A DNA stretch of 64,000 bases from Candidatus Latescibacterota bacterium (GCA_965223905.1 CBDCXV010000011.1:704001-768000), one strand, 5' to 3'. Numbered from the stretch's first letter, positions 37,763 through 47,581 are shown. A program made the numbers and translations. The notes: a model not told the origin generated them from the sequence alone.

Positions 37763-38596
37763 TCATGCCGGCGTCAGGTGAGCGATCGTTTCGCAATGGG
37801 GTGTCTGGGGAAAGAGGTCGATCGGCTGAAGGGACGGTACTCGAAACCCGCCTTCGCAGAGAACCCTCGCGTCAGCGGCCAGGGACGTTGGGTTGCAGGA
37901 GACGTAACCGAGGGACGGGGGTCTCATTCCGATCAGGGCCCGCAGCACCGACTTGTAGATTCCCGCGCGTGGGGGGTCCGCGATCACGAGATCGAATCTC
38001 CTGTTTTCCGCCATCAGGACGGCGATCACCTTCTCAACACGGCCCGCCCTGAAGGTGCAGTTTCCCCCCGTTCCGTTCTTTTCGGCGTTTCTGCGGGCGT
38101 CGGCAACCGCCTCCTCGACCTGCTCGATTCAAATCACCCTGTCGGCCCGTTTTGCCAGGTGAAGGCTGATGCCTCCTGTCCCGCAGTAGAGGTCGAGGAC
38201 AGTGGCGCCGGTCAGATCACCCGCCAGCGCCAACGATCTGCTCGTACAGAACCGCTGCCTGACCGGTGTTGGTCTGGAAGAAGGCCGCTGAAATCTCGAA
38301 CCCGATCCCTCCGCAGACTTCCGAGATCCTGCCGCTTCCCTTGAGAACGAACTCCCGTTCTCCGATGGCGGCCTGGGCCTTTCCCCGGTGCAGGGTCACG
38401 ACAAAAGTCGTTATCTCCGGAACCCTTTCCAGGACACAGCGAACCAGGTCTCCGACTCCCTTGTCCGGGTACTCTGAGACAACCAGGTTCACCATCACCT
38501 CGCCGGGATTCCTGCCTTCCCGGACCACGCACGGTATCGAGAAGATCCGGTTCGACAGCTGCGACTGGAGACGGCAGTCGAGCACGTCGAAAATCC
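37763..38596 (-). pseudogene. rlmD: 3' part of 23S rRNA m5U methyltransferase (RlmD/RumA family), frameshifted with an in-frame stop
   Basis: FFQTN, DLYCGTG, DPPRAG, YVSCNP and FPQTPH motifs across a frameshift; TGA after RVI. Confidence 0.88.
38589..38596. repeat. Left 8-bp target site duplication GAAAATCC
   Basis: Identical to 46545-46552; each copy abuts a TIR. Confidence 0.92.
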
Positions 38597-38630
38597 GGTA
38601 GTACGTCAGTTTGAAATCGAGTTATCCACA
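38597..38630 (+). repeat. Left TIR GGTAGTACGTCAGTTTGAAATCGAGTTATCCACA, ending in a DnaA box
   Basis: 29/34 identical to the reverse complement of 46511-46544. Confidence 0.92.
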
Positions 38631-38671
38631 CCCCAGGAAGTGTAGTATTTACAGTAACATACCTTCCTTAA

Positions 38672-38754
38672 GGGGGCGCGGAGTCCTTGGGAGGATGGAT
38701 TGGTCTTGACTCCGTCCATCCTGTGTGCCAAGGGTCAAGATACTCCGCGCCCCC
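38672..38754 (+). ncRNA. Putative structured RNA motif, copy 1
   Basis: Perfect 13-, 6- and 8-bp nested stems plus 7-nt loop/junction complementarity. Confidence 0.5.
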
Positions 38755-38775
38755 AGCATTTCGGGGGACAAGGGA

Positions 38776-38845
38776 GCAGGGCCGGTTGTGTGGGAGCGAG
38801 CAGTCCGATGCAGCTCGCTCCGATAAACCATCGGATTGGCCCTGC
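38776..38845 (+). ncRNA. Putative structured RNA motif, copy 2 (same topology)
   Basis: 8-, 4- and 9-bp nested stems plus TCCGATG/CATCGGA pairing. Confidence 0.5.
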
Positions 38846-38893
38846 CCCCCACTTGACATTGCCAGCTTGCGCCTCCAACCACAGGAGGCAGAT

Positions 38894-39160
38894 ATGGAAA
38901 GCGGAAAGCTCAAACCAGGATGGCAGGAGGGCATCAAGAAGCTGATCGCAGAAGCAGACCGGCAGGAGGAACTAACTCCGGGTGACGGGGAGGATTTGAG
39001 AGGTGCCCCCCCCGCCTCCACGGGATTCGAGAGCGGCGATCCGGGAAACAGCGGATTCAAGGTCATTTCGGAGAGAACGGAGCGTCTTTTCAAACAACTG
39101 GAGCTGGGCTTCGAGCGCATCAATGCTCTCCGCAAGGCCAGGGGGCTCCCACCCGTCTAA
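38894..39160 (+). CDS. Hypothetical 88-aa protein
   Basis: AGGAGG RBS and upstream TTGACA (38853); overlaps an antisense ORF. Confidence 0.5.
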   Translation: MESGKLKPGWQEGIKKLIAEADRQEELTPGDGEDLRGAPPASTGFESGDPGNSGFKVISERTERLFKQLELGFERINALRKARGLPPV

Positions 39161-39286
39161 GCGCATCAGTTTCTCCAGCTTTTGGGTTGCCTCTTCCACC
39201 TTAAGTGAGTTAGTGACAGGGGTGTTCAGATACTTTTGAAGCCTCTGTATTTCCTTGTCGAACTGCGCCATCGTGATTTTCTCCAA
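38972..39286 (-). CDS. Hypothetical coiled-coil protein
   Basis: Heptad pattern LAESIDALEAQLQLFEKTLRSLRNDLESAVSRIAALE; directly follows the upstream ORF. Confidence 0.5.
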   Translation of the reverse strand: MEKITMAQFDKEIQRLQKYLNTPVTNSLKVEEATQKLEKLMRLDGWEPPGLAESIDALEAQLQLFEKTLRSLRNDLESAVSRIAALESRGGGGGTSQILPVTRS

Positions 39287-39290
39287 AGGG

Positions 39291-39587
39291 TTAGGCGGTG
39301 GCGATTTGCGGCCCCTGGCTGTTACGAGCAGCCGGGGCCGTGTCTATGTTCAGCATTTTTTTCAATTTCATATCTGTCTGTTTGTAATCTTGCACGGCAG
39401 ATCCATCTGCAATTGAGCCCGGCAGAGCTATTGGTATAGGGCTCCACTTGCCGCCACTGGTCCGATAGTCCCACATGGTTCCATCATCGCAAATCACGAT
39501 GTAGGAGCCATCAAAATGTCCACGCACCATTGCTACAGGCTTTCTGGGTTCCGGAACTGGGACTTCTTGTTGACTATCGTCACACAC
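39291..39587 (-). CDS. Hypothetical protein, translationally coupled to the transposase
   Basis: Overlaps the transposase stop; ICDDGTMW...W.P.P motif. Confidence 0.55.
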   Translation of the reverse strand: MCDDSQQEVPVPEPRKPVAMVRGHFDGSYIVICDDGTMWDYRTSGGKWSPIPIALPGSIADGSAVQDYKQTDMKLKKMLNIDTAPAARNSQGPQIATA

Positions 39588-40470
39588 TTTCCTTCTCCAT
39601 TTTCCGGTAGGTTTTGGGACGATCTGGCTTGGGAGCCCTGTAGTCGATCAGGTCCAAGATCCAGCCTATGTCGTAGGGCCATTCGAAGATACCGGCTTTC
39701 ATGGCCGGGGTTTTTCCGTCCAAGCTCATGTGAGGGCGGATGAAGTTGTAGTACAGGAAGTAGAGGCTGCACATGTGAACGTGGTTCTGGAACTTCTTGC
39801 TGAATCCGTTGGTGCTTCGAGTGAACCGCCTCATTCCCATTCGCATGGTGAGGTTCTGACGTTCGACATGTGAGGTAGTGATGTGCTTGGGATCAGGATC
39901 ACCCTTTATCACCGATTTTTCGCTAGTGACTTCGATGGGGAGGGTAAATTTCCCATCTGGAGTATTCGTCGGATACTTGAAAGATTTCACAAGCTGGCTG
40001 TAGTCTACGAAGTTGCCGAAAGCCTTATCTACGGACTCTTGATAGGACCCCAAACCGTCAGTGGTCAGTTGCACTCGATAGGCAAGTCGACTCTGGAGGT
40101 CCTTCATGAACTTCTCGCCGGTTTCAATGGTGCGATCCCCGATCTGGTAAGAGACGATCAACTTACTTTTGGGATCTATGGCAGTCCAGGTCCAGATGTC
40201 CCCGGCAAAGGGAGGGGGATTCTTGGCCGTTTCGACGTTCTTCTTCTTGGCGTAGCAGAAAGCCCATATCTCATCGCACTGAATGCGCTTCGCCCTGACC
40301 ATGCGGACATTCCGGTCATGGAACTCGGCAGCGGCTTCTCCAGCGTCAACGAGCAGCTTCTTGACGGTGTTGAAGGAGCATCGGACAAGGCGGGCAGTGG
40401 CCTGCATCGAGTTGCCTTCTACTAGAAGATTCAGGACTTGCTCACGGTCTGACCTTGGGAGGGTTTTCAT
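39580..40470 (-). CDS. IS1-family DDE transposase (single ORF, HTH + DDE)
   Basis: LLVEGNSM.ATARL HTH; QCDEIW, TTDG and VERQN triad; RRFTR.TNGFSKK; YNF.RPH; TPAM.AG. Confidence 0.92.
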   Translation of the reverse strand: MKTLPRSDREQVLNLLVEGNSMQATARLVRCSFNTVKKLLVDAGEAAAEFHDRNVRMVRAKRIQCDEIWAFCYAKKKNVETAKNPPPFAGDIWTWTAIDPKSKLIVSYQIGDRTIETGEKFMKDLQSRLAYRVQLTTDGLGSYQESVDKAFGNFVDYSQLVKSFKYPTNTPDGKFTLPIEVTSEKSVIKGDPDPKHITTSHVERQNLTMRMGMRRFTRSTNGFSKKFQNHVHMCSLYFLYYNFIRPHMSLDGKTPAMKAGIFEWPYDIGWILDLIDYRAPKPDRPKTYRKMEKESV

Positions 40471-40510
40471 GCTTGCACAGTTCCTTCTTTGGGAGGGATT
40501 TCATACAAAT

Positions 40511-40539
40511 ATAGTACGAAAAAAACCGTGCAAAATCAA
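40511..40539 (-). promoter_or_regulatory. Putative sigma70 promoter of the transposase
   Basis: TTGATT-17 bp-TACTAT. Confidence 0.55.
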
Positions 40540-40569
40540 CGTAATCCAGTTAAAAAACAACTATTTATG

Positions 40570-40605
40570 GCTTCAATGAGGCCGGGGTCCGAAGACCCCG
40601 GAAAG
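40570..40605 (-). CRISPR. Solo 36-bp CRISPR-like repeat resembling type I-G (I-U): CTTTCCGGGGTCTTCGGACCCCGGCCTCATTGAAGC
   Basis: 8-bp hairpin and 3' GGCCTCATTGAAGC end; no second copy and no cas genes seen; TATAAT at 40630-40625. Confidence 0.7.
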
Positions 40606-40758
40606 GCAATGGCAAGGAAAGGATATTATATACAATCTTACCCACGGAGACTGGTAAAGCCTACCGCTTCCGTCCTGATTCCTCCAGGTAGCATGTCATC
40701 TCCCTTCGCGAGCCCGATCCCTCACTCGCCTTCATCTAGGATCAGACCAAGCATTTGT

Positions 40759-40995
40759 CTACTCGCATCGAGCTTTGCAGGTATCGGCAGCTTTACCGGA
40801 CCGGGCAATACAGGCTCTCTTGTCACTGTCCCAAAACCGGGAAAAGCATACCGGTATACTGTCCTCGTAATCCTGCTGGCAATAACTGATACACCGCGCC
40901 TTAGCCTCTTCTGCGGAACAGGAGCTGGCAGGATTGGAACGGCTGCATCCATAGACCAACACAGCGGCCGCGATCAACAGCAGTGCGGGTGTCAT
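40759..40995 (-). CDS. Small Cys-rich lipoprotein
   Basis: AGGAGG RBS; lipobox VYG-C; CxxxC motifs. Confidence 0.65.
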   Translation of the reverse strand: MTPALLLIAAAVLVYGCSRSNPASSCSAEEAKARCISYCQQDYEDSIPVCFSRFWDSDKRACIARSGKAADTCKARCE

Positions 40996-41037
40996 GCGAC
41001 CTCCTTGGTCAGCTGTCGGAAGCGTCTACGGCGGGGG

Positions 41038-41370
41038 TCAGTCACCGTACAAAATCGAAGGGTGGCCCCACTTTAGATCCCATCCTTTCGCGCCGACGAT
41101 ATAGCGGTGGAAAGAAACGCCCGGATCGGTTTTCGTAGCTGCTTGTAGATCATCAGCTTGGTTCTGCTCGTTGGGTGAATCCATAGTATCGACTTCAACG
41201 ATCCATATTTTGCCGTCCTTGTAGGCGACTATATCGGGAATTCTACCGTTGATAGATTTCGGAGTTGGATGCGTATCTATGTGGTCAGCTTCAACATCAC
41301 AACCTGCTTGCTCAAAAACCTCGACGATTTTGTCCACAGCCAAGTTGTGGACTGTCTGTTCCCATGCCAT
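41038..41370 (-). CDS. Small PD-(D/E)xK-fold nuclease-like protein
   Basis: IPDIVAYKDGKIWIVEVDT; AAGGAG RBS; TACAAT at 41470-41465. Confidence 0.6.
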   Translation of the reverse strand: MAWEQTVHNLAVDKIVEVFEQAGCDVEADHIDTHPTPKSINGRIPDIVAYKDGKIWIVEVDTMDSPNEQNQADDLQAATKTDPGVSFHRYIVGAKGWDLKWGHPSILYGD

Positions 41371-41487
41371 TCTGAAATCTCCTTTTCGGTCTGCATCAGA
41401 GTAAGGCACACCTGATGCCAGCTCATCGCAAGGCCGTAACTCCCTGTTTCCAGGGAGACCAAGCATTGTATCAGCAGCTTTCTATTG

Positions 41488-41679
41488 TCACTGTTCCATT
41501 TCTATGCGACTACTGTAAGGACTCCCCCACAGGCATACCGAGAGTAGAACCCAGATATACCAGTGACCGCTTGTGTGCTTCGGAGGATATTGCCGGCTGT
41601 AGGTGCGGTAGAGGTTCCACCACCCAACCGCTAAGGGGATCGTCAAGGCCAAGAGAAATGCACCTACATCCTTTCCCAT
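41488..41679 (-). CDS. Small 2-TM protein
   Basis: Two hydrophobic segments. Confidence 0.5.
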   Translation of the reverse strand: MGKDVGAFLLALTIPLAVGWWNLYRTYSRQYPPKHTSGHWYIWVLLSVCLWGSPYSSRIEMEQ

Positions 41680-41698
41680 TTAACTACCGTTGGTTTTG

Positions 41699-41923
41699 TT
41701 ATGATTTTCCGTTTTGTTCATCATTGCGGTCGAGTTCTGATCCTACTTTGTTTCCCGCCAGTAACCCCAGTGCTCCCACTATCGCCCCTAGGGGAATCGT
41801 CGCCGGCGCAGCCCAGCCACCTGTAGCGATACCTATACCAGCCCCGATCTTGGCTCCAATAGCAGCGCCAGCGGCTGCTCCGCCTGCTGTTCCAACCAAT
41901 TCCTTTTTCCTTTTCTTCTTCAT
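41699..41923 (-). CDS. Glycine-zipper small membrane protein
   Basis: Basic N-terminus followed by GxxxG repeats; AGGAG RBS. Confidence 0.65.
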   Translation of the reverse strand: MKKKRKKELVGTAGGAAAGAAIGAKIGAGIGIATGGWAAPATIPLGAIVGALGLLAGNKVGSELDRNDEQNGKS

Positions 41924-42037
41924 GTCCTGTCTCCTTTTTCTGTCTCTGCCAAAAAAAAGACCGCGCCGGGGTCTAACCTATCGCACCGAACTCCCCCGAA
42001 GCGGTTGGCGGCGAATCTCGCCGCACGAAAAATTCCG

Positions 42038-42217
42038 TTACTTCTTTTTCCGACCCGAGCCGGATTTGCGGCCAGACTTCGGCTGATCCTCTTTAGCAGA
42101 GGTCCCGGTCACCGGGACCCTTACGTCTTCCTCTTCCCCGGTGGCGATGCGGCACACCTGCACCGCCAGTGCAATGGGGCTGGACGGTCGAACTTCGCCG
42201 TTAGGTCCTATGGGCAT
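42038..42217 (-). CDS. Small basic protein of the MPxGPxGExRP...RIATGE type, recalled as accompanying this IS1 clade
   Basis: MPIGPNGEVRP..IALAVQVCRIATGEEE with K/G-rich tail; RBS and TTGACA upstream. Confidence 0.65.
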   Translation of the reverse strand: MPIGPNGEVRPSSPIALAVQVCRIATGEEEDVRVPVTGTSAKEDQPKSGRKSGSGRKKK

Positions 42218-42303
42218 GATGCCATCCTTTCCGTTAAGGTGTAACGAACGATGCGGCATCGGATTGGGAATGTCAAGCTAATACTTCGATAATCATAGAG
42301 GGA

Positions 42304-42588
42304 TCACGGCGGAAAATCCGCGAGGGCTGCCCGGCGATTGGATAGGCTTTCTTCTCGGACGTCCTCAGCCCTCAGCGGTGCGTTCATGCGTTCCCGCAAG
42401 GCGGCTCCCAAGGCGGAAAGGGTGCGTTCCCGGTCGCCTTTGCGCAGAAGAGCGTGCAAAACCTCTTCGTTTGGCTTCGGGGATCGCAGTTCATCGGAAA
42501 TGGCCTTCGGCAGGGCTTCCTTCGCTCGGCCTTGTTGCCTTTGGGGTTCCATCCAGTTTGACGGTTTTGGCACGGGGTGTTCAGTCAT
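42304..42588 (-). CDS. Hypothetical protein
   Basis: AGGAG RBS; ATGA overlap with the upstream ORF. Confidence 0.5.
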   Translation of the reverse strand: MTEHPVPKPSNWMEPQRQQGRAKEALPKAISDELRSPKPNEEVLHALLRKGDRERTLSALGAALRERMNAPLRAEDVREESLSNRRAALADFPP

Positions 42589-42839
42589 TTCTCCTGGTCA
42601 AAGGCAGTGTGGTATCTTTTTGTCAGCAGAACCACGTCCTTGAATGTGGGGAATATGAACCGTTTCGCCCGGCTATCTCCAGTAGCTGTCCAGCGGTTGA
42701 TTTCGAACCTGTTGCTCTCCCGGGATTTCAGGTGGTCGCCGTCCGGGTCCTGTGCGTGCGCTTGGAGTTGCAGGCCGACTTGGATGAGGTCGTGAGCCAT
42801 TTCGAGTAGTTCAGCCCGTAGGTCTTCCGCGTCAGACAT
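42585..42839 (-). CDS. Hypothetical protein
   Basis: ORF in the co-oriented run of micro-genes. Confidence 0.45.
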   Translation of the reverse strand: MSDAEDLRAELLEMAHDLIQVGLQLQAHAQDPDGDHLKSRESNRFEINRWTATGDSRAKRFIFPTFKDVVLLTKRYHTAFDQEK

Positions 42840-42897
42840 TGGATTCTGTTCCCCTGTTCAGGTTTATTGGCCGTGCCGGGGGTCTGAGACAATACCG

Positions 42898-43149
42898 TTA
42901 CTTCGGATGGTTCTCCAAATGCTCGACGTGGTATTGCCGTAACTCCGTCAACTGGCCTTTGATTTCCGTAAGAGTTTGATCCGTGTTATTCTGACTGGCC
43001 TTGATCCGCTTGCCAATGGCCTTATGGGCTTTGTTGTTAGTTTTGTTGGTCGTCTTCAGCTCGCTTTTCAGGTTGTTGCGCAGTGCTGCATACAGGGCCA
43101 CAACAGCCAAGACAATGGTCCCAACGGCAATCCAGATTTCGGAAGTCAT
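42898..43149 (-). CDS. Small N-terminal TM + coiled-coil protein
   Basis: Hydrophobic N-terminus, heptads, C-terminal HLENHPK. Confidence 0.65.
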   Translation of the reverse strand: MTSEIWIAVGTIVLAVVALYAALRNNLKSELKTTNKTNNKAHKAIGKRIKASQNNTDQTLTEIKGQLTELRQYHVEHLENHPK

Positions 43150-43184
43150 GGGAGGGTCCTTCGTTGGGTTGGTTCAAAATTTCT

Positions 43185-43532
43185 TCACGTACCGGAGGTT
43201 CGGTCCCTGATTCGGTTCTTTGTCCTTCTATTGGCCCAAATGGACAATCCTGACAGCCCGCCACAGGCCAAGCCGAATAATCCCAAAAGAATCGCGCCCC
43301 CCCTAGATCCATGAGGAGTTACAAGAAGCGTCACCGAGGCGCCAAATGAAGCCGTGGCAATACCGATGCAGAACGTTCCCATCCACCCTATGGTTTCGAG
43401 ACCTTCGACCTCTTCTTCGGTCAGGGAATACATTCTAAGCGTTCTCGTTTCTTGGATGACATTGACGTTGTTAGCGGAGGATGGTGAAATCTCACCTCCG
43501 CCGCCCTTTTCAGACACTGAGTTCTTGCTCAT
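43185..43532 (-). CDS. Small 2-TM protein
   Basis: Two TM segments and a basic tail; overlaps the Zn-ribbon ORF. Confidence 0.55.
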   Translation of the reverse strand: MSKNSVSEKGGGGEISPSSANNVNVIQETRTLRMYSLTEEEVEGLETIGWMGTFCIGIATASFGASVTLLVTPHGSRGGAILLGLFGLACGGLSGLSIWANRRTKNRIRDRTSGT

Positions 43533-43824
43533 GCTTTGAGTCGGAAATGGGTTTTCCCAGATTTTTAATCCCCATCACGACGGCACTGAAAATCCTGGTA
43601 AATCCACACTTCCCGCAATGGAGCAAGATGGCGGGGAAGCACACCCTTCCATGGGGGGACTGTGTTGTCCCGAGCGACGTAAGGCTCATTAAATGTGTAT
43701 TAATGAACCACCTGTTACTACGACATTGGGAACAATTGGGACTTATCCCATTGTCTTCCATCCATTCGTGTATTCTATCTATATCTTCTTCCGTTAGCTT
43801 ACCATCAGCCTCGGGCATTCTCAA
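43510..43824 (-). CDS. Zn-ribbon protein
   Basis: CSQC...CGKCGF; AAGGAGG RBS. Confidence 0.65.
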   Translation of the reverse strand: MRMPEADGKLTEEDIDRIHEWMEDNGISPNCSQCRSNRWFINTHLMSLTSLGTTQSPHGRVCFPAILLHCGKCGFTRIFSAVVMGIKNLGKPISDSKHEQELSV

Positions 43825-43879
43825 GCCTCCTTAGATGACCTTACGATGATCTTACAATGATCTCATTTCGCCGTTCTCC

Positions 43880-44017
43880 TCACTCCACTCCTGTTCTGCC
43901 ATCCAGGTGGCGGTCGAGGCGGTCGTTGTGACGGTCGATTCGGCTTCCAATGTCTCGCCAAAAGGCACCCAGAGCTGCCAGTACCACGAGCATGGGAATG
44001 ATTTCCGTCCAAGTCAC
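43880..44017 (-). CDS. 45-aa TM + coil microprotein (MTWTEIIPMLVVLAALGAFWRDIGSRIDRHNDRLDRHLDGRTGVE), not in the ORF track
   Basis: GTG start after GAAGGAGG; hand translation. Confidence 0.6.
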   Translation of the reverse strand: MTWTEIIPMLVVLAALGAFWRDIGSRIDRHNDRLDRHLDGRTGVE

Positions 44018-44039
44018 CTTGGGCCTCCTTCAGGAGGGA

Positions 44040-44309
44040 TCAGCTGCCGTTGACGGGTCCGGGAGTGGGGCATGGATCGAGCCGGCCTTCCACTCTATAC
44101 AACCCCTTTTCCACATAGTCAAGGCGCACATCGATGCGGGCCAGAGCCTTGCCCTGAGCAGACAGTTCCTACTGCATGGCGTTCATCCGGGTGTCCATCA
44201 GGTCCATTCTGGAACTCAGGCTGGAGCTGAATCCCCACTGGCTGCCGATGATGGCAACCAGAAGTCCCAAGAGCACCAGAACGTCCTTCCAGTTCAGTCT
44301 GCCGTTCAT
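44040..44309 (-). pseudogene. TM + coiled-coil microprotein with an internal TAG (44171-44169)
   Basis: MNGRLNWKDVLVLLGLLVAII...RMNAMQ*ELSAQGKALARIDVRLDYVE; heptads continue past the stop. Confidence 0.55.
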
Positions 44310-44573
44310 CTTGGGCCTCCTTCAGGATAGGTGGTCTCCCACCGCTACCCTGAATTTCTCGCCATGAATAGGGAATGTCAAGCCAAAAACCGCTTGTGGA
44401 CGCCCGTGGGGTACTGTAAGGTATGAGCCGTCCGCTTCTCTACACGCAGGATCCGACTGAGGTCGGGTCTCCTGCTGAATGCAATAGCCAGTAGTAGAAC
44501 CCGGCCAAGGGGTCGCACCCCGAGGCAAGGCGAATAGGCAGGACTTTCCCGCGCGTTCCTGCGTGTCAGGGAG

Positions 44574-45335
44574 GTGGACAAGGCCCGGCACCCTTTTTTT
44601 CGGGGTGTCGTGGTGGCCGAAAAGTCCACCTCGAAACGCGGGAAATCGGTCGTGCAACACCCCTCCCAGAAGCATCTCAGTAGCTACAGATCCACCTGTT
44701 CGTCACTGTCTCAAGGGACGGTCCCGGTGTGCCATACCTGGACGGCTGTCCACCGGAAGGGGTTTGTCCACTCCTTCTTGCGGGAATGCCGTAGGCCGGG
44801 ACCGCTCTGCTTTTTTCTGTCGTGTCTGGTGCTGATCGGTTGCGCCAGAGACAGCAGCACCACTCCTGAATCTGCCCCCCCTGCGGAGTCAGTCTCCAGA
44901 CCAGATCCAGACGATCTGGACCTTTGGAGCTACGGTTACAACAGCAGCCAAAGGGTGCACATCTTGAGACACACCGCCACCTCAGAAGGGGTGGACTGCA
45001 CGATGTGGATTGAATGCAGGGGGACTCCCAGCTTCCCGGACTTGTATTTCTGGATTCCCAGAGGAGACTTCAATGGTTGGGGAGGCACACCTGGATACGA
45101 TGGGGATTGGCCAGATCAACCGGTCATAAACCTGACATGGGGAGAAGAAAATCCAGAACCTACCAAGATGAATTTGAGCAAGAACACCTTCACTTTTCAG
45201 GACCGGAAATGGAAGGACAAGATGATGTCGAACGACATCCTGTTGATGGAATTGCCGTGGGAACAATACGGCTCACTGTATTTCTATTTCGATCTCAGAG
45301 AAGGAAGACAACTCCTCAGCTACCACTGCTTATGA
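44574..45335 (+). CDS. Hypothetical lipoprotein (true start probably near 44780)
   Basis: Hydrophobic stretch with lipobox LIG-C, P/S-rich linker and a globular domain. Confidence 0.55.
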   Translation: MDKARHPFFRGVVVAEKSTSKRGKSVVQHPSQKHLSSYRSTCSSLSQGTVPVCHTWTAVHRKGFVHSFLRECRRPGPLCFFLSCLVLIGCARDSSTTPESAPPAESVSRPDPDDLDLWSYGYNSSQRVHILRHTATSEGVDCTMWIECRGTPSFPDLYFWIPRGDFNGWGGTPGYDGDWPDQPVINLTWGEENPEPTKMNLSKNTFTFQDRKWKDKMMSNDILLMELPWEQYGSLYFYFDLREGRQLLSYHCL

Positions 45336-45368
45336 ACCACATCCATACCCCTCCCAAGGAGCAACTCG

Positions 45369-45524
45369 ATGACGCTTGCCAGTGAGCTGGTGAAGAAGCT
45401 GGAAGAAGAGCTGTCAGAGACTCAGAAAAAGCTCAAAGCAGAAGAGCAGAAGTCAGACAAATGGAAGAAGAAGGCAGGCGATAGATGGCAAGAGATTGAA
45501 CGTATGAAACGCAACTCGGGTTGA
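45369..45524 (+). CDS. 51-aa charged coiled-coil microprotein (MTLASELVKKLEEELSETQKKLK...), not in the ORF track
   Basis: AAGGAG RBS; hand translation. Confidence 0.5.
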   Translation: MTLASELVKKLEEELSETQKKLKAEEQKSDKWKKKAGDRWQEIERMKRNSG

Positions 45525-45525
45525 C

Positions 45526-45783
45526 TCAATCTATCAGCAGACCGCAGCATTGAATTACAAAACCGAGGACCAAAACAGATACTCCGACCTTTGCTCTTCG
45601 AGAATCCTTGAGCAGTTGCTGGACCATTGGGAGCTTCATGTGGTCTTCCCTTGTCTCTCCTACCCATCGTGAAACTCCAAGCTCGATGGCCTTATCCCTG
45701 GACATGATAATGCCTGAACCCAAAATCACAGCTCCAACAATGTCCATCAGGAGACCAGCTACCTGAATTGATTCAGTAGACAT
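45526..45783 (-). CDS. Small 2-TM protein
   Basis: GLLMDIVGAVIL ... GVSVLVLGFVIQ. Confidence 0.6.
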   Translation of the reverse strand: MSTESIQVAGLLMDIVGAVILGSGIIMSRDKAIELGVSRWVGETREDHMKLPMVQQLLKDSRRAKVGVSVLVLGFVIQCCGLLID

Positions 45784-45784
45784 G

Positions 45785-45979
45785 TCAACCGGTCTTCTGT
45801 TTGGGGTCGAAGTGGATTTCCTGCTTGTCCGTGGAGAGGAAGAGCTGGTCGAGGTACCGCAGTCTGGTGTTCACGGTAGGCGAGGGAGGCACCTGCACCT
45901 TGCCGGCATGAGACAGATCGGTCCGGGAGGTGTGAGCTTCCCGGTCGGTCAGGGCGACGATGTATTTCAGTCGGGCCAT
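45785..45979 (-). CDS. Hypothetical microprotein
   Basis: Co-oriented and abutting its neighbours. Confidence 0.35.
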   Translation of the reverse strand: MARLKYIVALTDREAHTSRTDLSHAGKVQVPPSPTVNTRLRYLDQLFLSTDKQEIHFDPKQKTG

Positions 45980-46476
45980 AGCAAGTGCTCCGGGAGTAGG
46001 ATGTAGACCGGTTCCTGATTCCAGAAATCGCCTAAGCCTGCAGCCATGTGGGCTTCCATAAGGGTACGAATACCTGTGGCAAGTTCGATATCCAGTGTGG
46101 GGTTGGCCAGAGATTCTCGACGCATATGGGCCATATGGCGCTCATGAGCTGAACGTCCCAAGAGAGGGGGGCAGGTCGACTTTTCGGCGTCGGATGTCTT
46201 CTTTCTTTGCTCGTCGTTTCAAGTCTGAGTAATTCCGTCCAGATTGGTGTTGATTTTTTTTCTCAGAATGGTATTTTTCAAGTGCCATTAGGCACTCCTT
46301 TCTTGAGAGGGAAGGAAACGAAAGCAAGGGACTGGAGATAGCCTATGCCAAGGCTTTCGGTCCCTTCTTTCATTTTGGGGTCAAAACGTCATCATGCTGG
46401 GCAATATACGTACTTTGTTCCCAAATCTCCAGGTTCAGCCACGGAATGTCCAGGACGAATCAGATATCCCTAAAAA

Positions 46477-46489
46477 AATCAACCATTTA
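46477..46489 (+). promoter_or_regulatory. IHF-consensus site AATCAACCATTTA near the right end
   Basis: Matches WATCAANNNNTTR exactly, with an upstream A-tract. Confidence 0.5.
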
Positions 46490-46510
46490 CCTACTGTTTG
46501 TGGATAGAAT

Positions 46511-46544
46511 TGTGGATAACCCAGGTTCAGACTGACGTACTACC
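46511..46544 (-). repeat. Right TIR, containing a DnaA box
   Basis: Reverse complement GGTAGTACGTCAGTCTGAACCTGGGTTATCCACA. Confidence 0.92.
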
Positions 46545-47006
46545 GAAAATCCGGTTGTAGCGACCGCGGTGGTGCAACCCCAGCAACGTGCCGCCTCCGC
46601 AATCCCTGCCGAAGAACTCCATCTTGTTGCGGTAGAAAAACGGGGCGCGACTCGCAATAATCGGCCTTTGCTCGTCGCAACGGAGACCCTGTTGCTCCAG
46701 TGCATTTTGCAACCATCCGTTCCTTCAATCGCAACTGGTCGCCGTAACGGAGGTCCTACCAGCGGCACCCGCCGCACCCCGAAGTTAGGGCATTCGGAGG
46801 CTACCCGGGGGATCGGGGTGCTCGTTATGCGGTCCGCAGTCGCCTCCCAGATTCTCCCTTTCCTCCTGCGCACGGTTCGCTTCCACACGATCCCCGGGCA
46901 GCGTCCGGCGAACGATGAACTCCGAGTCGTCGATCCTGGCCCAGCCGTCACCCTGGGCCGTTAACTCGCGGATATCTAGCTCAATCCTGTCTCCGCGTCT
47001 TGGCAC
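46545..47006 (-). pseudogene. rlmD: 5' part of rlmD (TRAM domain and Fe-S motif), frameshifted; 46545-46552 is the right TSD
   Basis: LPGDRV; CPNFG then CGGCRW* in another frame; YRNKMEF. Confidence 0.88.
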
Positions 47007-47053
47007 TGGCCGAAACCGTTACGGTGCTGAATGATGGTGAACCGAGGTACATG

Positions 47054-47111
47054 AAAAAGCGAGGCGCACGAGATGATGCCATTTTCACCATCAAAAGCGC
47101 GCCTCGCCTTT
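47054..47111 (-). terminator. Possible intrinsic terminator after rplQ
   Basis: GCGAGGCGC/GCGCCTCGC stem followed by a T-run; large loop. Confidence 0.45.
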
Positions 47112-47161
47112 CGGTTGAGGGAGTGGACGCTCCCGGCCGGGTGGTTCACCCAGGGTCGTCC

Positions 47162-47581
47162 CTATTCTTCTTTCTTTTCCGTTTCCTGACTCGCGGTTGG
47201 ACCTGACGCCGGAGCACGGCTACCTGGCCTGTCGACCAACTCGATTATGCACATCTCGGCACCATCGCCACGCCTCGGCTCACCCTTGACAATCCGTGTG
47301 TACCCGCCGCTGCGGTTGGAGTAGCGCGGACCGATCTCGTCGAAAAGCTTTGCCACTATGCGCTTGTTGGCTATTGTGCGCAGCACCTGGCGACGCGCAT
47401 GCAGATCGCCCCTTTTGGCAAAGGTGATCAGACTCTCGGCGGTTCGCCTCAGTTCCTTCGCTCTCGCCGTTGTTGTATGGATAGCCTCGTGTTCGATCAA
47501 AGAGGTGACCATGTTGCCGAGCATCGCCTTGAGATGACTGCGATCGCGGCTCAGCCTGGCCTTTTTGTTCCTGTGTACCAT
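47162..47581 (-). CDS. rplQ: 50S ribosomal protein L17
   Basis: GGYTRI, RRGDGA motifs. Confidence 0.96.

Follow-up and report, generated by a model that had tools for sequence, protein, structure and literature searches.

A 7.9-kb insertion of the IS1 family in a Candidatus Latescibacterota genome, probably a transporter insertion sequence, with many small open reading frames, a structured RNA motif and a solitary CRISPR repeat

In a 64,000-nucleotide stretch of DNA from Candidatus Latescibacterota bacterium (GCA_965223905.1, CBDCXV010000011.1:704001-768000; hereafter the window, with positions counted from its first letter), the segment 38597-46544 forms a unit of 7,948 bp whose G+C content is 53%, against 58-66% in its surroundings. 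We found that this unit is a real, young insertion which moved as one unit together with its passenger genes, and that it belongs to a widespread clade of elements which are always at least 2.1 kb long. Taken as a whole, it is best explained, with high probability in our judgement, as a transporter insertion sequence of the IS1 family. Transporter insertion sequences (tIS) are derivatives of insertion sequences (IS) with passenger genes, which are gained and lost only by events other than transposition, in the description given in PMC9330008. As in these, one pair of IS ends encloses the passenger genes of the element, which moved as a unit and has no second transposase or recombinase. The tIS that have been described usually carry no more than a few genes, for example for regulators, transporters or resistance, whereas the cargo here, spread over four positions, comprises about 18 small open reading frames (ORFs) together with an RNA motif and a CRISPR repeat. 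An original prediction, made on the DNA sequence, had described an IS1-family unit transposon moving with passenger genes, which the inverted repeats, target duplication, Pfam match and empty site reported below bear out; it had missed that oversize is usual in the clade, that a structured RNA lies under two of the ORFs and that a solitary CRISPR repeat is present. Since oversize is normal in the clade, the length of the element is less of a surprise than it first appears; its unusual features are that so much cargo of this kind is present with no nested IS and lies at four positions, and that a solitary type I-G repeat and an unclassified RNA accompany it.

The ends of the element were located in three ways. 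An inverted-repeat search returned arms at 38596-38630 and 46511-46545 (35 nt, 86% complementary), and direct reading placed the terminal inverted repeats (TIRs) at 38597-38630 on the plus strand, the end nearest the transposase stop, and at 46511-46544 on the minus strand, far upstream of the transposase, where the reverse complement is identical to the left TIR at 29/34 positions. Each TIR begins GGTAGTACGTCAG and finishes TTATCCACA, and the right one contains TGTGGATA twice. A scan with a 19-nt end pattern allowing up to three mismatches gave exactly 2 occurrences in the window and 0 in 100 shuffles, so that no internal remnants of ends, as a nested or fused IS would leave, were seen within the element at this stringency. 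The 8-bp target site duplication (TSD) GAAAATCC stands outside each TIR, at 38589-38596 and 46545-46552. Thus the 34-bp TIRs, the 8-bp TSD and the intact 296-aa transposase about 1 kb from one end and 6 kb from the other, all claimed at the outset, were found again on re-reading.

Ten public sequencing runs had words in common with 38300-46850, and we examined four of them (X1, X3, X4 and X10). X1, the probable source sample, contained 98% of the words of this region, and its contigs together cover the element and extend over both junctions with 0 mismatches (38324-40275 and 45812-46643). In contigs of X3, X4 and X10, which belong to three other studies, position 38587 is joined to 46544; these contigs skip 7,956 bp, which is the 7,948 bp of the element and one 8-bp copy of the TSD, carry the TSD as a single copy, and have flanks with 0-1 mismatches to the window (depth 52 in X3, 8.65 in X4 and 3.5 in X10). 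As the exact empty site occurs in near-identical DNA, the whole unit was inserted as one piece, and recently. A chimeric assembly, in which unrelated contigs were joined at repeats and which the original prediction had proposed to check, has a negligible chance of being the answer, given the X1 contigs across both junctions and the base-exact empty site in three other studies. The empty-site strains thereby form a natural pair, with and without the element, for the effects of the cargo. X10 is an RNA library from an empty-site sample, and has three short contigs over the element and none over 40570-40630; the uncovered parts are uninformative.

The target of the insertion is a pseudogene of a RumA/RlmD-like rRNA methyltransferase on the minus strand (37763-38596 and 46553-47006). 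We considered whether the joined target is an intact gene and rejected this, as at least three frame changes, together with two stops, interrupt the RumA/RlmD-like frame. One of its stops, TAG at 46758-46756, reads CAG in X3 and X10 and TAG in X4, and, as X4 is also an empty-site sample, the decay of the target is older than the insertion.

The transposase is encoded on the minus strand by a single ORF of 296 aa with an N-terminal helix-turn-helix region (39580-40470); the left end is 984 bp away from it and the right end 6,074 bp. It matches Pfam DDE_Tnp_IS1 with 38.6 bits (E 1.7e-9, cut-off 24.1), and in an alignment of 12 sequences the invariant D66/E67, D138 and E203 are retained. The TIRs of the IS1 family start GGnnnTG according to ISfinder; the element starts GGTAGTA and most of its relatives GGTAGTG, so that the GG start is present, and the 8-bp TSD of the element and of 61 related elements agrees with the 8-9 bp typical of IS1. 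Together with the public naming of its relatives, these are the features by which the element resembles the IS1 family. Canonical IS1 is under 1 kb and has two ORFs, insA and insB', joined by a -1 frameshift. The element differs in that it has no InsA/InsAB' frameshift pair but one ORF, is 7.9 kb long and shares with its relatives an accessory gene, present in 58/62 elements. A single-ORF kind of IS1 relatives exists, and ISfinder also includes long members of the family that have passenger genes. The transposase would bind both ends and, through the DDE chemistry known from IS1, move everything between them. A candidate promoter for it, TTGATT-N17-TACTAT at 40511-40539 on the minus strand, was noticed by eye and is absent from the consensus scan.

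Two local features of the transposase gene may be noted. At 40455-40504, 16 nt with its ribosome-binding site (RBS) and start are duplicated 34 nt upstream, which creates a 20-codon upstream ORF overlapping the transposase start in another frame. At 40235-40287, about 50 nt that encode the QCDEIWAF motif attract many unrelated metagenome contigs at 90% identity or more, and therefore the depth peak which the mapped runs show there is false.

We found no second copy of the element in its own genome or in the collections searched, and its own genome otherwise holds transposase fragments, apart from one further IS1-like element of the same family described below. Relatives of the transposase are nevertheless abundant: they occur in 14/61 related genomes and as 401 stretches in a species-genome collection (Alpha- and Betaproteobacteria, Dehalococcoidia, Acidobacteriota, Latescibacterota and others). 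A protein search at E<=1e-20 gave at least 7,999 clusters, which NCBI and JGI call 'IS1 family transposase' where they are named; the best non-self match is 59-61% identical. Among the best 80 of the 401 species-genome loci, 55 were bounded by ends GGTAGTG..CAGTTTGAAA and a perfect 8-bp duplication, as were 6/7 loci from the related genomes; the seventh (G002), with ends present and the duplication absent, was excluded. The resulting 61 related elements are 2,115-7,613 bp long and none is near 1 kb. In their usual layout a distance of about 25 bp separates the transposase stop from one end, and the transposase has the extra DNA upstream of it. Clustering of the ORFs of 62 elements (55 + 7, including three identical copies in one genome) brought out a gene of about 75 aa in 58/62 of them, upstream of the transposase and in 57/58 on its strand, with the consensus MPxGPxGEKRPADVIGxAVxVARIATGE...GGKARAxxLTPERRxEIAxKAAxxRW. 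In the window this accessory gene encodes 73 aa with the core MPxGPxGExRP...IATGE (42038-42259, minus strand). An AlphaFold model built with 32 sequences has three helices at moderate confidence (pLDDT, the predicted local distance difference test, 77.5; pTM, the predicted template modelling score, 0.38), and the nearest ESM Atlas clusters carry the automatic and unchecked label 'RNA-binding protein family protein' (score 0.94). Such a basic, three-helix protein might serve transposition or its control. The core of the clade is thus end, a structured RNA in some members, the accessory protein of about 75 aa, transposase, end. We found nothing in the literature on this clade, papers on passenger genes of the IS1 family included.

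The further element of the same family is at C10:298724-302268 (contig C10 of the genome, G000; 3,545 bp, TSD GATCCGCT); its transposase is 44-46% identical, it has no accessory gene at E<=1e-3, and an RNA motif lies downstream of its transposase. Paralogues of the accessory gene also occur outside any recognisable IS, at C10:472549-472731, which is 120-160 nt downstream of an RNA-motif copy, and at C2:510719-511027.

The way in which the cargo was assembled is best seen by comparison with the nearest relative, E2 (genome G001), which is 2,146 bp long and has a transposase 61-62% identical. Its order is end, RNA motif, accessory gene, transposase, end, and the same order is kept in the window element (E0), where, relative to E2, about 1.9 kb is added before the RNA motif, 2.2 kb between the RNA motif and the accessory gene, 1.5 kb between the accessory gene and the transposase and 1 kb beyond the latter. 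As extra DNA is found in all four gaps of the core, at least four cargo events are needed instead of a single capture, and one local gene duplication is visible besides, in the 45- and 46-aa ORFs. The competing view is that the cargo is one stretch of former host or prophage DNA, taken up in a single event, for example by read-through to a surrogate end, with its ORFs incidental. This would agree with the fairly even G+C content of the cargo (51-59% per kb), with the finding that the accessory gene and one 45-aa ORF are the only cargo ORFs to recur in the other 61 elements, and with a 62% viral cluster to which the atlas points for the lipoprotein ORF. We nonetheless consider it quite improbable, because the cargo alternates with the family's core parts (RNA motif, accessory gene, transposase), which keep the order seen in E2, because the far end is no surrogate but matches the near end at 29/34 positions including the inner TTATCCACA, and because the cargo DNA had no match in 50,697 phage and 72,556 plasmid records (blastn for phages) and no PHROG match of known function; in PHROGs there was the match of the transposase and, beyond it, weak matches of unknown function. 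The same results answer the earlier question of a colinear prophage fragment in the negative. Capture of adjacent DNA of the ISEcp1 or ISCR type would give cargo on one side of the transposase, whereas both ends here are true family ends and the cargo lies on both sides of the core genes and between them.

Comparison among the relatives, proposed at the outset, did reveal different cargo inside conserved ends. Pairs of elements with 72-88% identical transposase DNA have only that ~0.9 kb in common, and no listed pair shares cargo DNA, the three identical copies excepted. A gene for an HTH_XRE-Peptidase_M78 (ImmA/IrrE-like) protein is found in 12/62 elements. The other long members are long through nested IS: the 7,613-bp one has IS66 genes inside, a 6,694-bp relative an IS1595-type transposase and a Fic gene, and one relative of 5,357 bp a DDE_Tnp_1 gene. 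The cassette platform that had been proposed found no support, as there is no repeated capture site, no cassette is common to different copies and only one copy of the element is known. Like integron cassettes, the cargo consists of numerous small genes, mostly unknown, which run in one direction on a mobile carrier, but the element is without integrase, attI or attC (no integrase or attC-like feature, as originally stated, and no second transposase among the 23 ORFs scanned), its cargo lies within transposon ends, and there is no sign of site-specific capture; none of its direct repeats is a repeated site that could mark a capture mechanism, and an integron-like platform is therefore unsupported. 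What the sequence comparisons favour instead is a transporter IS with fast cargo turnover. Insertion sequences are usually seen as bare transposase genes, and in this clade IS1 relatives across several phyla routinely carry a conserved gene and changing cargo; the window element shows the extent which this can reach, with 6 kb of small genes and no second mobility gene.

The extra ~6 kb contains about 18 ORFs of 45-142 aa on the transposase strand, many with start-to-stop overlaps, and two ORFs on the opposite strand. The claim of about 20 micro-genes stood as regards these packed small ORFs and failed for two further ones, 44322-44675 and 44378-44629, which are probably spurious because the RNA motif lies under them. 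ORFs of at least 45 aa cover 78% of the transposase strand, against 46 +/- 8% (maximum 69%) in 200 shuffles. The products would be mostly small membrane, secreted and nucleic-acid-binding proteins, which may be produced from a single long operon on the strand of the transposase. The matches of the cargo DNA in 60 related genomes were confined to the RNA motif, the 46-aa ORF (80%) and two shorter stretches. The 78-aa ORF has a 93%-identical counterpart on an X3 contig, and a 245-nt RNA-library contig is identical to 43315-43559, over the 115-aa ORF; parts of the cargo therefore exist elsewhere. The 142-aa ORF (41038-41466, minus strand; probably 110 aa from Met33) is, on the strength of homologue searches, a probable protein of the PD-(D/E)xK nuclease fold, related to AHJR-like nucleases: it had one relative among 5.8 billion proteins (92%) and 43 among cluster representatives, and 8/9 of its small relatives match Pfam AHJR-like or Hjc, two of them above the cut-off, in keeping with the nuclease-like ORF noted originally. 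Giant proteins with fn3 or SprB repeats, which also appeared as its homologues, look composition-driven and were set aside.

Several results weigh against the element being a working transporter IS with genuine passenger genes. The NCBIfam model transpos_IS1 scores the transposase at 68.6 bits, below its 100-bit cut-off, which makes it a distant member of the family. Only one copy of the element is known in its own genome and the collections searched, and its present mobility and any exchange of cargo are therefore argued from its relatives. No Pfam, PHROG or PADLOC match names a function for any cargo ORF, and NCBIfam likewise gives none; the suggestion of defence or anti-defence cargo found no PADLOC match of note. 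When two cargo ORFs were compared with the 5.8 billion proteins, the 142-aa ORF had its one relative and the plus-strand lipoprotein ORF zero, and with so few relatives several cargo ORFs could be non-coding. The accessory protein had no match in Pfam, NCBIfam or PDB sequences in profile searches and its model no Foldseek match in PDB at E<=0.001, and the window copy keeps the N-terminal part without the C-terminal GGKARA...RW motif. This last loss, the five differences among the 34 positions of the ends, the 75% ORF coverage of the opposite strand and the two ORFs over the RNA motif would all suit an element that is dead and decaying, with many ORFs being chance frames. We regard such decay as unlikely. 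The transposase is full length with all invariant columns present, the insertion is recent with flanks identical to those of the empty-site strains, the ORFs have operon-like start-to-stop overlaps, G+C at first codon positions exceeds that at second positions (GC1 > GC2) in 15/19 ORFs, and 6/10 of the listed differences between the 78-aa ORF and its X3 relative fall at third codon positions.

The structured RNA motif of about 170 nt occupies 44437-44607 on the minus strand and was recognised by similarity and a covariance model. This segment matches many places in its own genome at 70-77%; the copies have the blocks GCCGGGC, GUCCCGCCUAUUCGCCAAG, GAGCUACCCC, GGCUGUUGUAUUCAGC and GACCCGAC in common, and between the blocks lie hairpins whose sequences vary and whose pairing is kept. 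Rfam 15 had no match to the motif at E<=10, and an Rfam scan of 38000-47500 returned only the CRISPR repeat and one weak leader match. A covariance model of the 3' 101 positions, with 19 pairs drawn by hand, found 13 copies in the genome and matches in 63/151 sampled genomes of the phylum. In 56 matches, aligned by fitting to the covariance model, which favours the pairing score, 80.7% of cells were paired against 70.7% in shuffles and at most 51.8% with partners slid; 12/19 pairs change on both sides, and the covariation score was 0.292 against 0.134 in shuffles (0/500) and at most 0.103 with partners slid. RNAalifold on plain MAFFT alignments gave almost nothing, because the variable helices are misaligned there. 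The motif is found inside a minority of the IS1-like elements of the family (in one alphaproteobacterial, one Dehalococcoidia and one Latescibacterota genome, and in E1 and E2), and most copies lie outside such elements. A role as leader of one gene family was ruled out, the genes downstream being heterogeneous (28 ORFs scanned). The motif may function as RNA or as single-strand DNA, and we put it forward as a candidate new RNA family tied to mobile DNA.

Copies in the genome include C10:73957-74058, C9:438953-439054, C9:859681-859782, C10:472847-472948, C11:1191038-1191138 and 7 more. Two direct copies, one full and one partial, bracket a 17.6-kb island (C10:74058-91557, locus L005) with genes for AlpA-like, primase-like, AAA_25, RadC and DksA/TraR-zinc-finger proteins, as if the motif were an integration site; the second of these copies lies in the 1,006-bp gap of an orphan CRISPR array. 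At C2:414.8-417.5 kb (L125) a motif heads another island with small genes in the style of the cargo, among them one for an 84-aa protein with transmembrane (TM) and coiled-coil parts that resembles the window ORF 42898-43149.

A solitary CRISPR repeat unit (SRU) of 36 nt, type I-G-like (40570-40605, minus strand), lies some 100 bp ahead of the start of the transposase gene, with the cargo operon on one side and the candidate promoter of the transposase on the other. It was recognised by BLAST of the element against its own genome and by Rfam (CRISPR-DR16, 30.2 bits, E 7e-4, below the gathering threshold of 35). It is 34/36 identical to the 14 repeats of an orphan array at C10:90.9-92.9 kb, which comprises 13 repeats and a lone repeat after the 1,006-bp gap (C10:90933-92860, loci L005 and L148) and has no cas genes within 10 kb. 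The two differences change a G-U pair to G-C and the loop to UUCG; the hairpin has an 8-bp stem and a 4-nt loop as in the array repeat, with -17.0 against -15.6 kcal/mol. The genome has two type I-G loci with Cas3g, Cas8g, Cas7g, Cas5-6g and Cas4-Cas1, and with the 36-nt repeat of the cas-linked I-G array the SRU has in common the 5' TTTCC, the 14-nt 3' end GGCCUCAUUGAAGC and the same hairpin geometry with compensatory stem changes. Beside the SRU there is no second or degenerate repeat, local alignment being no better than in shuffles; it is the only match to the repeat in contig C11 outside arrays, and no cas gene is among the ORFs of the element.

The SRUs of phages and plasmids, which often stand just after a promoter, are RNA anti-CRISPRs (Racr) that bind Cas6 and Cas7 (PMC10651486). 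The repeat in the element resembles these in being a lone, intergenic copy which mimics the repeat sequence and hairpin of the host, with no cas adjoining and a -10-like box upstream, and differs in its carrier, an insertion sequence, and in its type, I-G; the search sets of that study were prophages, plasmids and viral contigs, and type I-G is absent from its main text (PMC10651486). By this analogy the SRU may be transcribed and act as a Racr-like RNA decoy for the host Cas5-6 and Cas7, a proposal we hold tentatively. Its RNA would then tie up Cas5-6 and Cas7 and shield the element or its carrier from the two I-G systems of the host. The box in question is TATAAT at 40630-40625, 19 nt upstream of the SRU, seen by eye and without an acceptable -35. 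Counting against the decoy are a promoter scan that lists no minus-strand promoter before the SRU, the failure of 131 host spacers from 5 arrays to match the element beyond chance (best 14-18 nt), so that there is no sign of the host targeting it, and the absence of the SRU from the 7 related elements checked. In 8 related elements the transposase has a 15-16-nt match to one I-G spacer, which was also discarded, being at chance level and not extended (23/38, which equals background).

It is also conceivable, and we take it as a serious possibility short of even likelihood, that the SRU is a relic, brought in as a scrap of an array, or else a regulator resembling CRISPR RNA (crRNA), of the CreTA/crlRNA kind, that guides Cascade, possibly onto the transposase promoter. 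CreTA and crRNA-like RNAs (crlRNAs) are said to guide Cascade to repress a promoter. The place of the SRU, after the cargo operon and just ahead of the candidate promoter of the transposase, would fit such a role, and the partial inverted repeat by the RNA motif in the gap of the orphan array and the solitary repeats in two related genomes (G042 and G052) suggest that scraps of the repeat are scattered in this group. In a relic, however, drift is expected, yet both differences of the SRU keep or strengthen the hairpin; and a guide role is hard to square with the 40 nt after the SRU, for which the rest of the genome offers nothing of 14 nt or longer, the best match being 13 nt and A/T-rich. If the SRU is instead an RNA anti-CRISPR, insertion sequences would join phages and plasmids as carriers of decoys, and it would be the first candidate inhibitor RNA for type I-G. 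A wider proposal, that the clade consists of RNA-equipped vehicles in which the accessory protein works with the structured RNA, and to which this member adds an RNA anti-CRISPR and small membrane or nuclease-like proteins for evasion or exclusion, is speculative and in our estimate rather unlikely; were it true, a new RNA family would be tied to IS1 biology.

The 14-nt handle of the SRU occurs in arrays of five related genomes and in solitary full repeats of two more, G042 (L184:1465-1514) and G052 (L186:1470-1514), which have the same 14-nt 3' end; the one in G042 lies just before an ORF with a strong RBS, near an IS200-like TnpA fragment. The inverted partial repeat in the gap of the orphan array (C10:91524-91537) is 20 nt before the RNA-motif copy, and its 3' handle can pair with the AAUGAGG that follows. 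The type I-G loci are at C11:1232-1246 kb and C10:1255-1266 kb (L120-L123), with repeats of 36-37 nt; PADLOC candidates PDC-M31A/B adjoin the second, on C10, and two neighbouring spacers in the C11 array are identical.

The remaining cargo ORFs, which come from the ORF listing where no other source is given, are on the minus strand except for two. Downstream of the transposase lie a 104-aa, coiled-coil-like ORF (38972-39286, sub-threshold Pfam matches only) and a 98-aa ORF without a family match (39291-39587), whose start overlaps the transposase stop by 8 nt. The 78-aa ORF with its X3 relative has a lipoprotein-like signal and is Cys-rich (40759-40995). After the nuclease-fold ORF come one of 63 aa with two hydrophobic stretches (41488-41679) and one of 74 aa, glycine-zipper-like (41699-41923), for which a search of the genome found a paralogue at C11:1189622-1189753. 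Beyond the accessory gene are ORFs of 94 aa (42304-42588), 84 aa (42585-42839, its stop overlapping the next start in ATGA), 83 aa with an N-terminal TM stretch and a coiled coil (42898-43149, weak PHROG matches of unknown function), 115 aa with two TM stretches (43185-43532), and 104 aa, zinc-ribbon-like with CxxC...CxxC (43510-43824). The 45-aa ORF (43880-44017) and the 46-aa ORF (44169-44309) each have a TM stretch and share an upstream 22-nt block (repeat family D4); the former has a relative in element E5, found by element comparison, and the latter has its 80%-identical DNA in the same-genus genome G002, found in the search of related genomes. The two plus-strand ORFs are that of 44574-45335, likely a lipoprotein of about 190 aa starting near 44766 (lipobox LIGC), and a 51-aa, coiled-coil-like one (45369-45524). 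Towards the right end follow ORFs of 85 aa with two TM stretches (45526-45783), of 64 aa (45785-45979), of 64 aa overlapping its neighbours (45967-46161) and, last, of 61 aa, which is basic (46142-46327).

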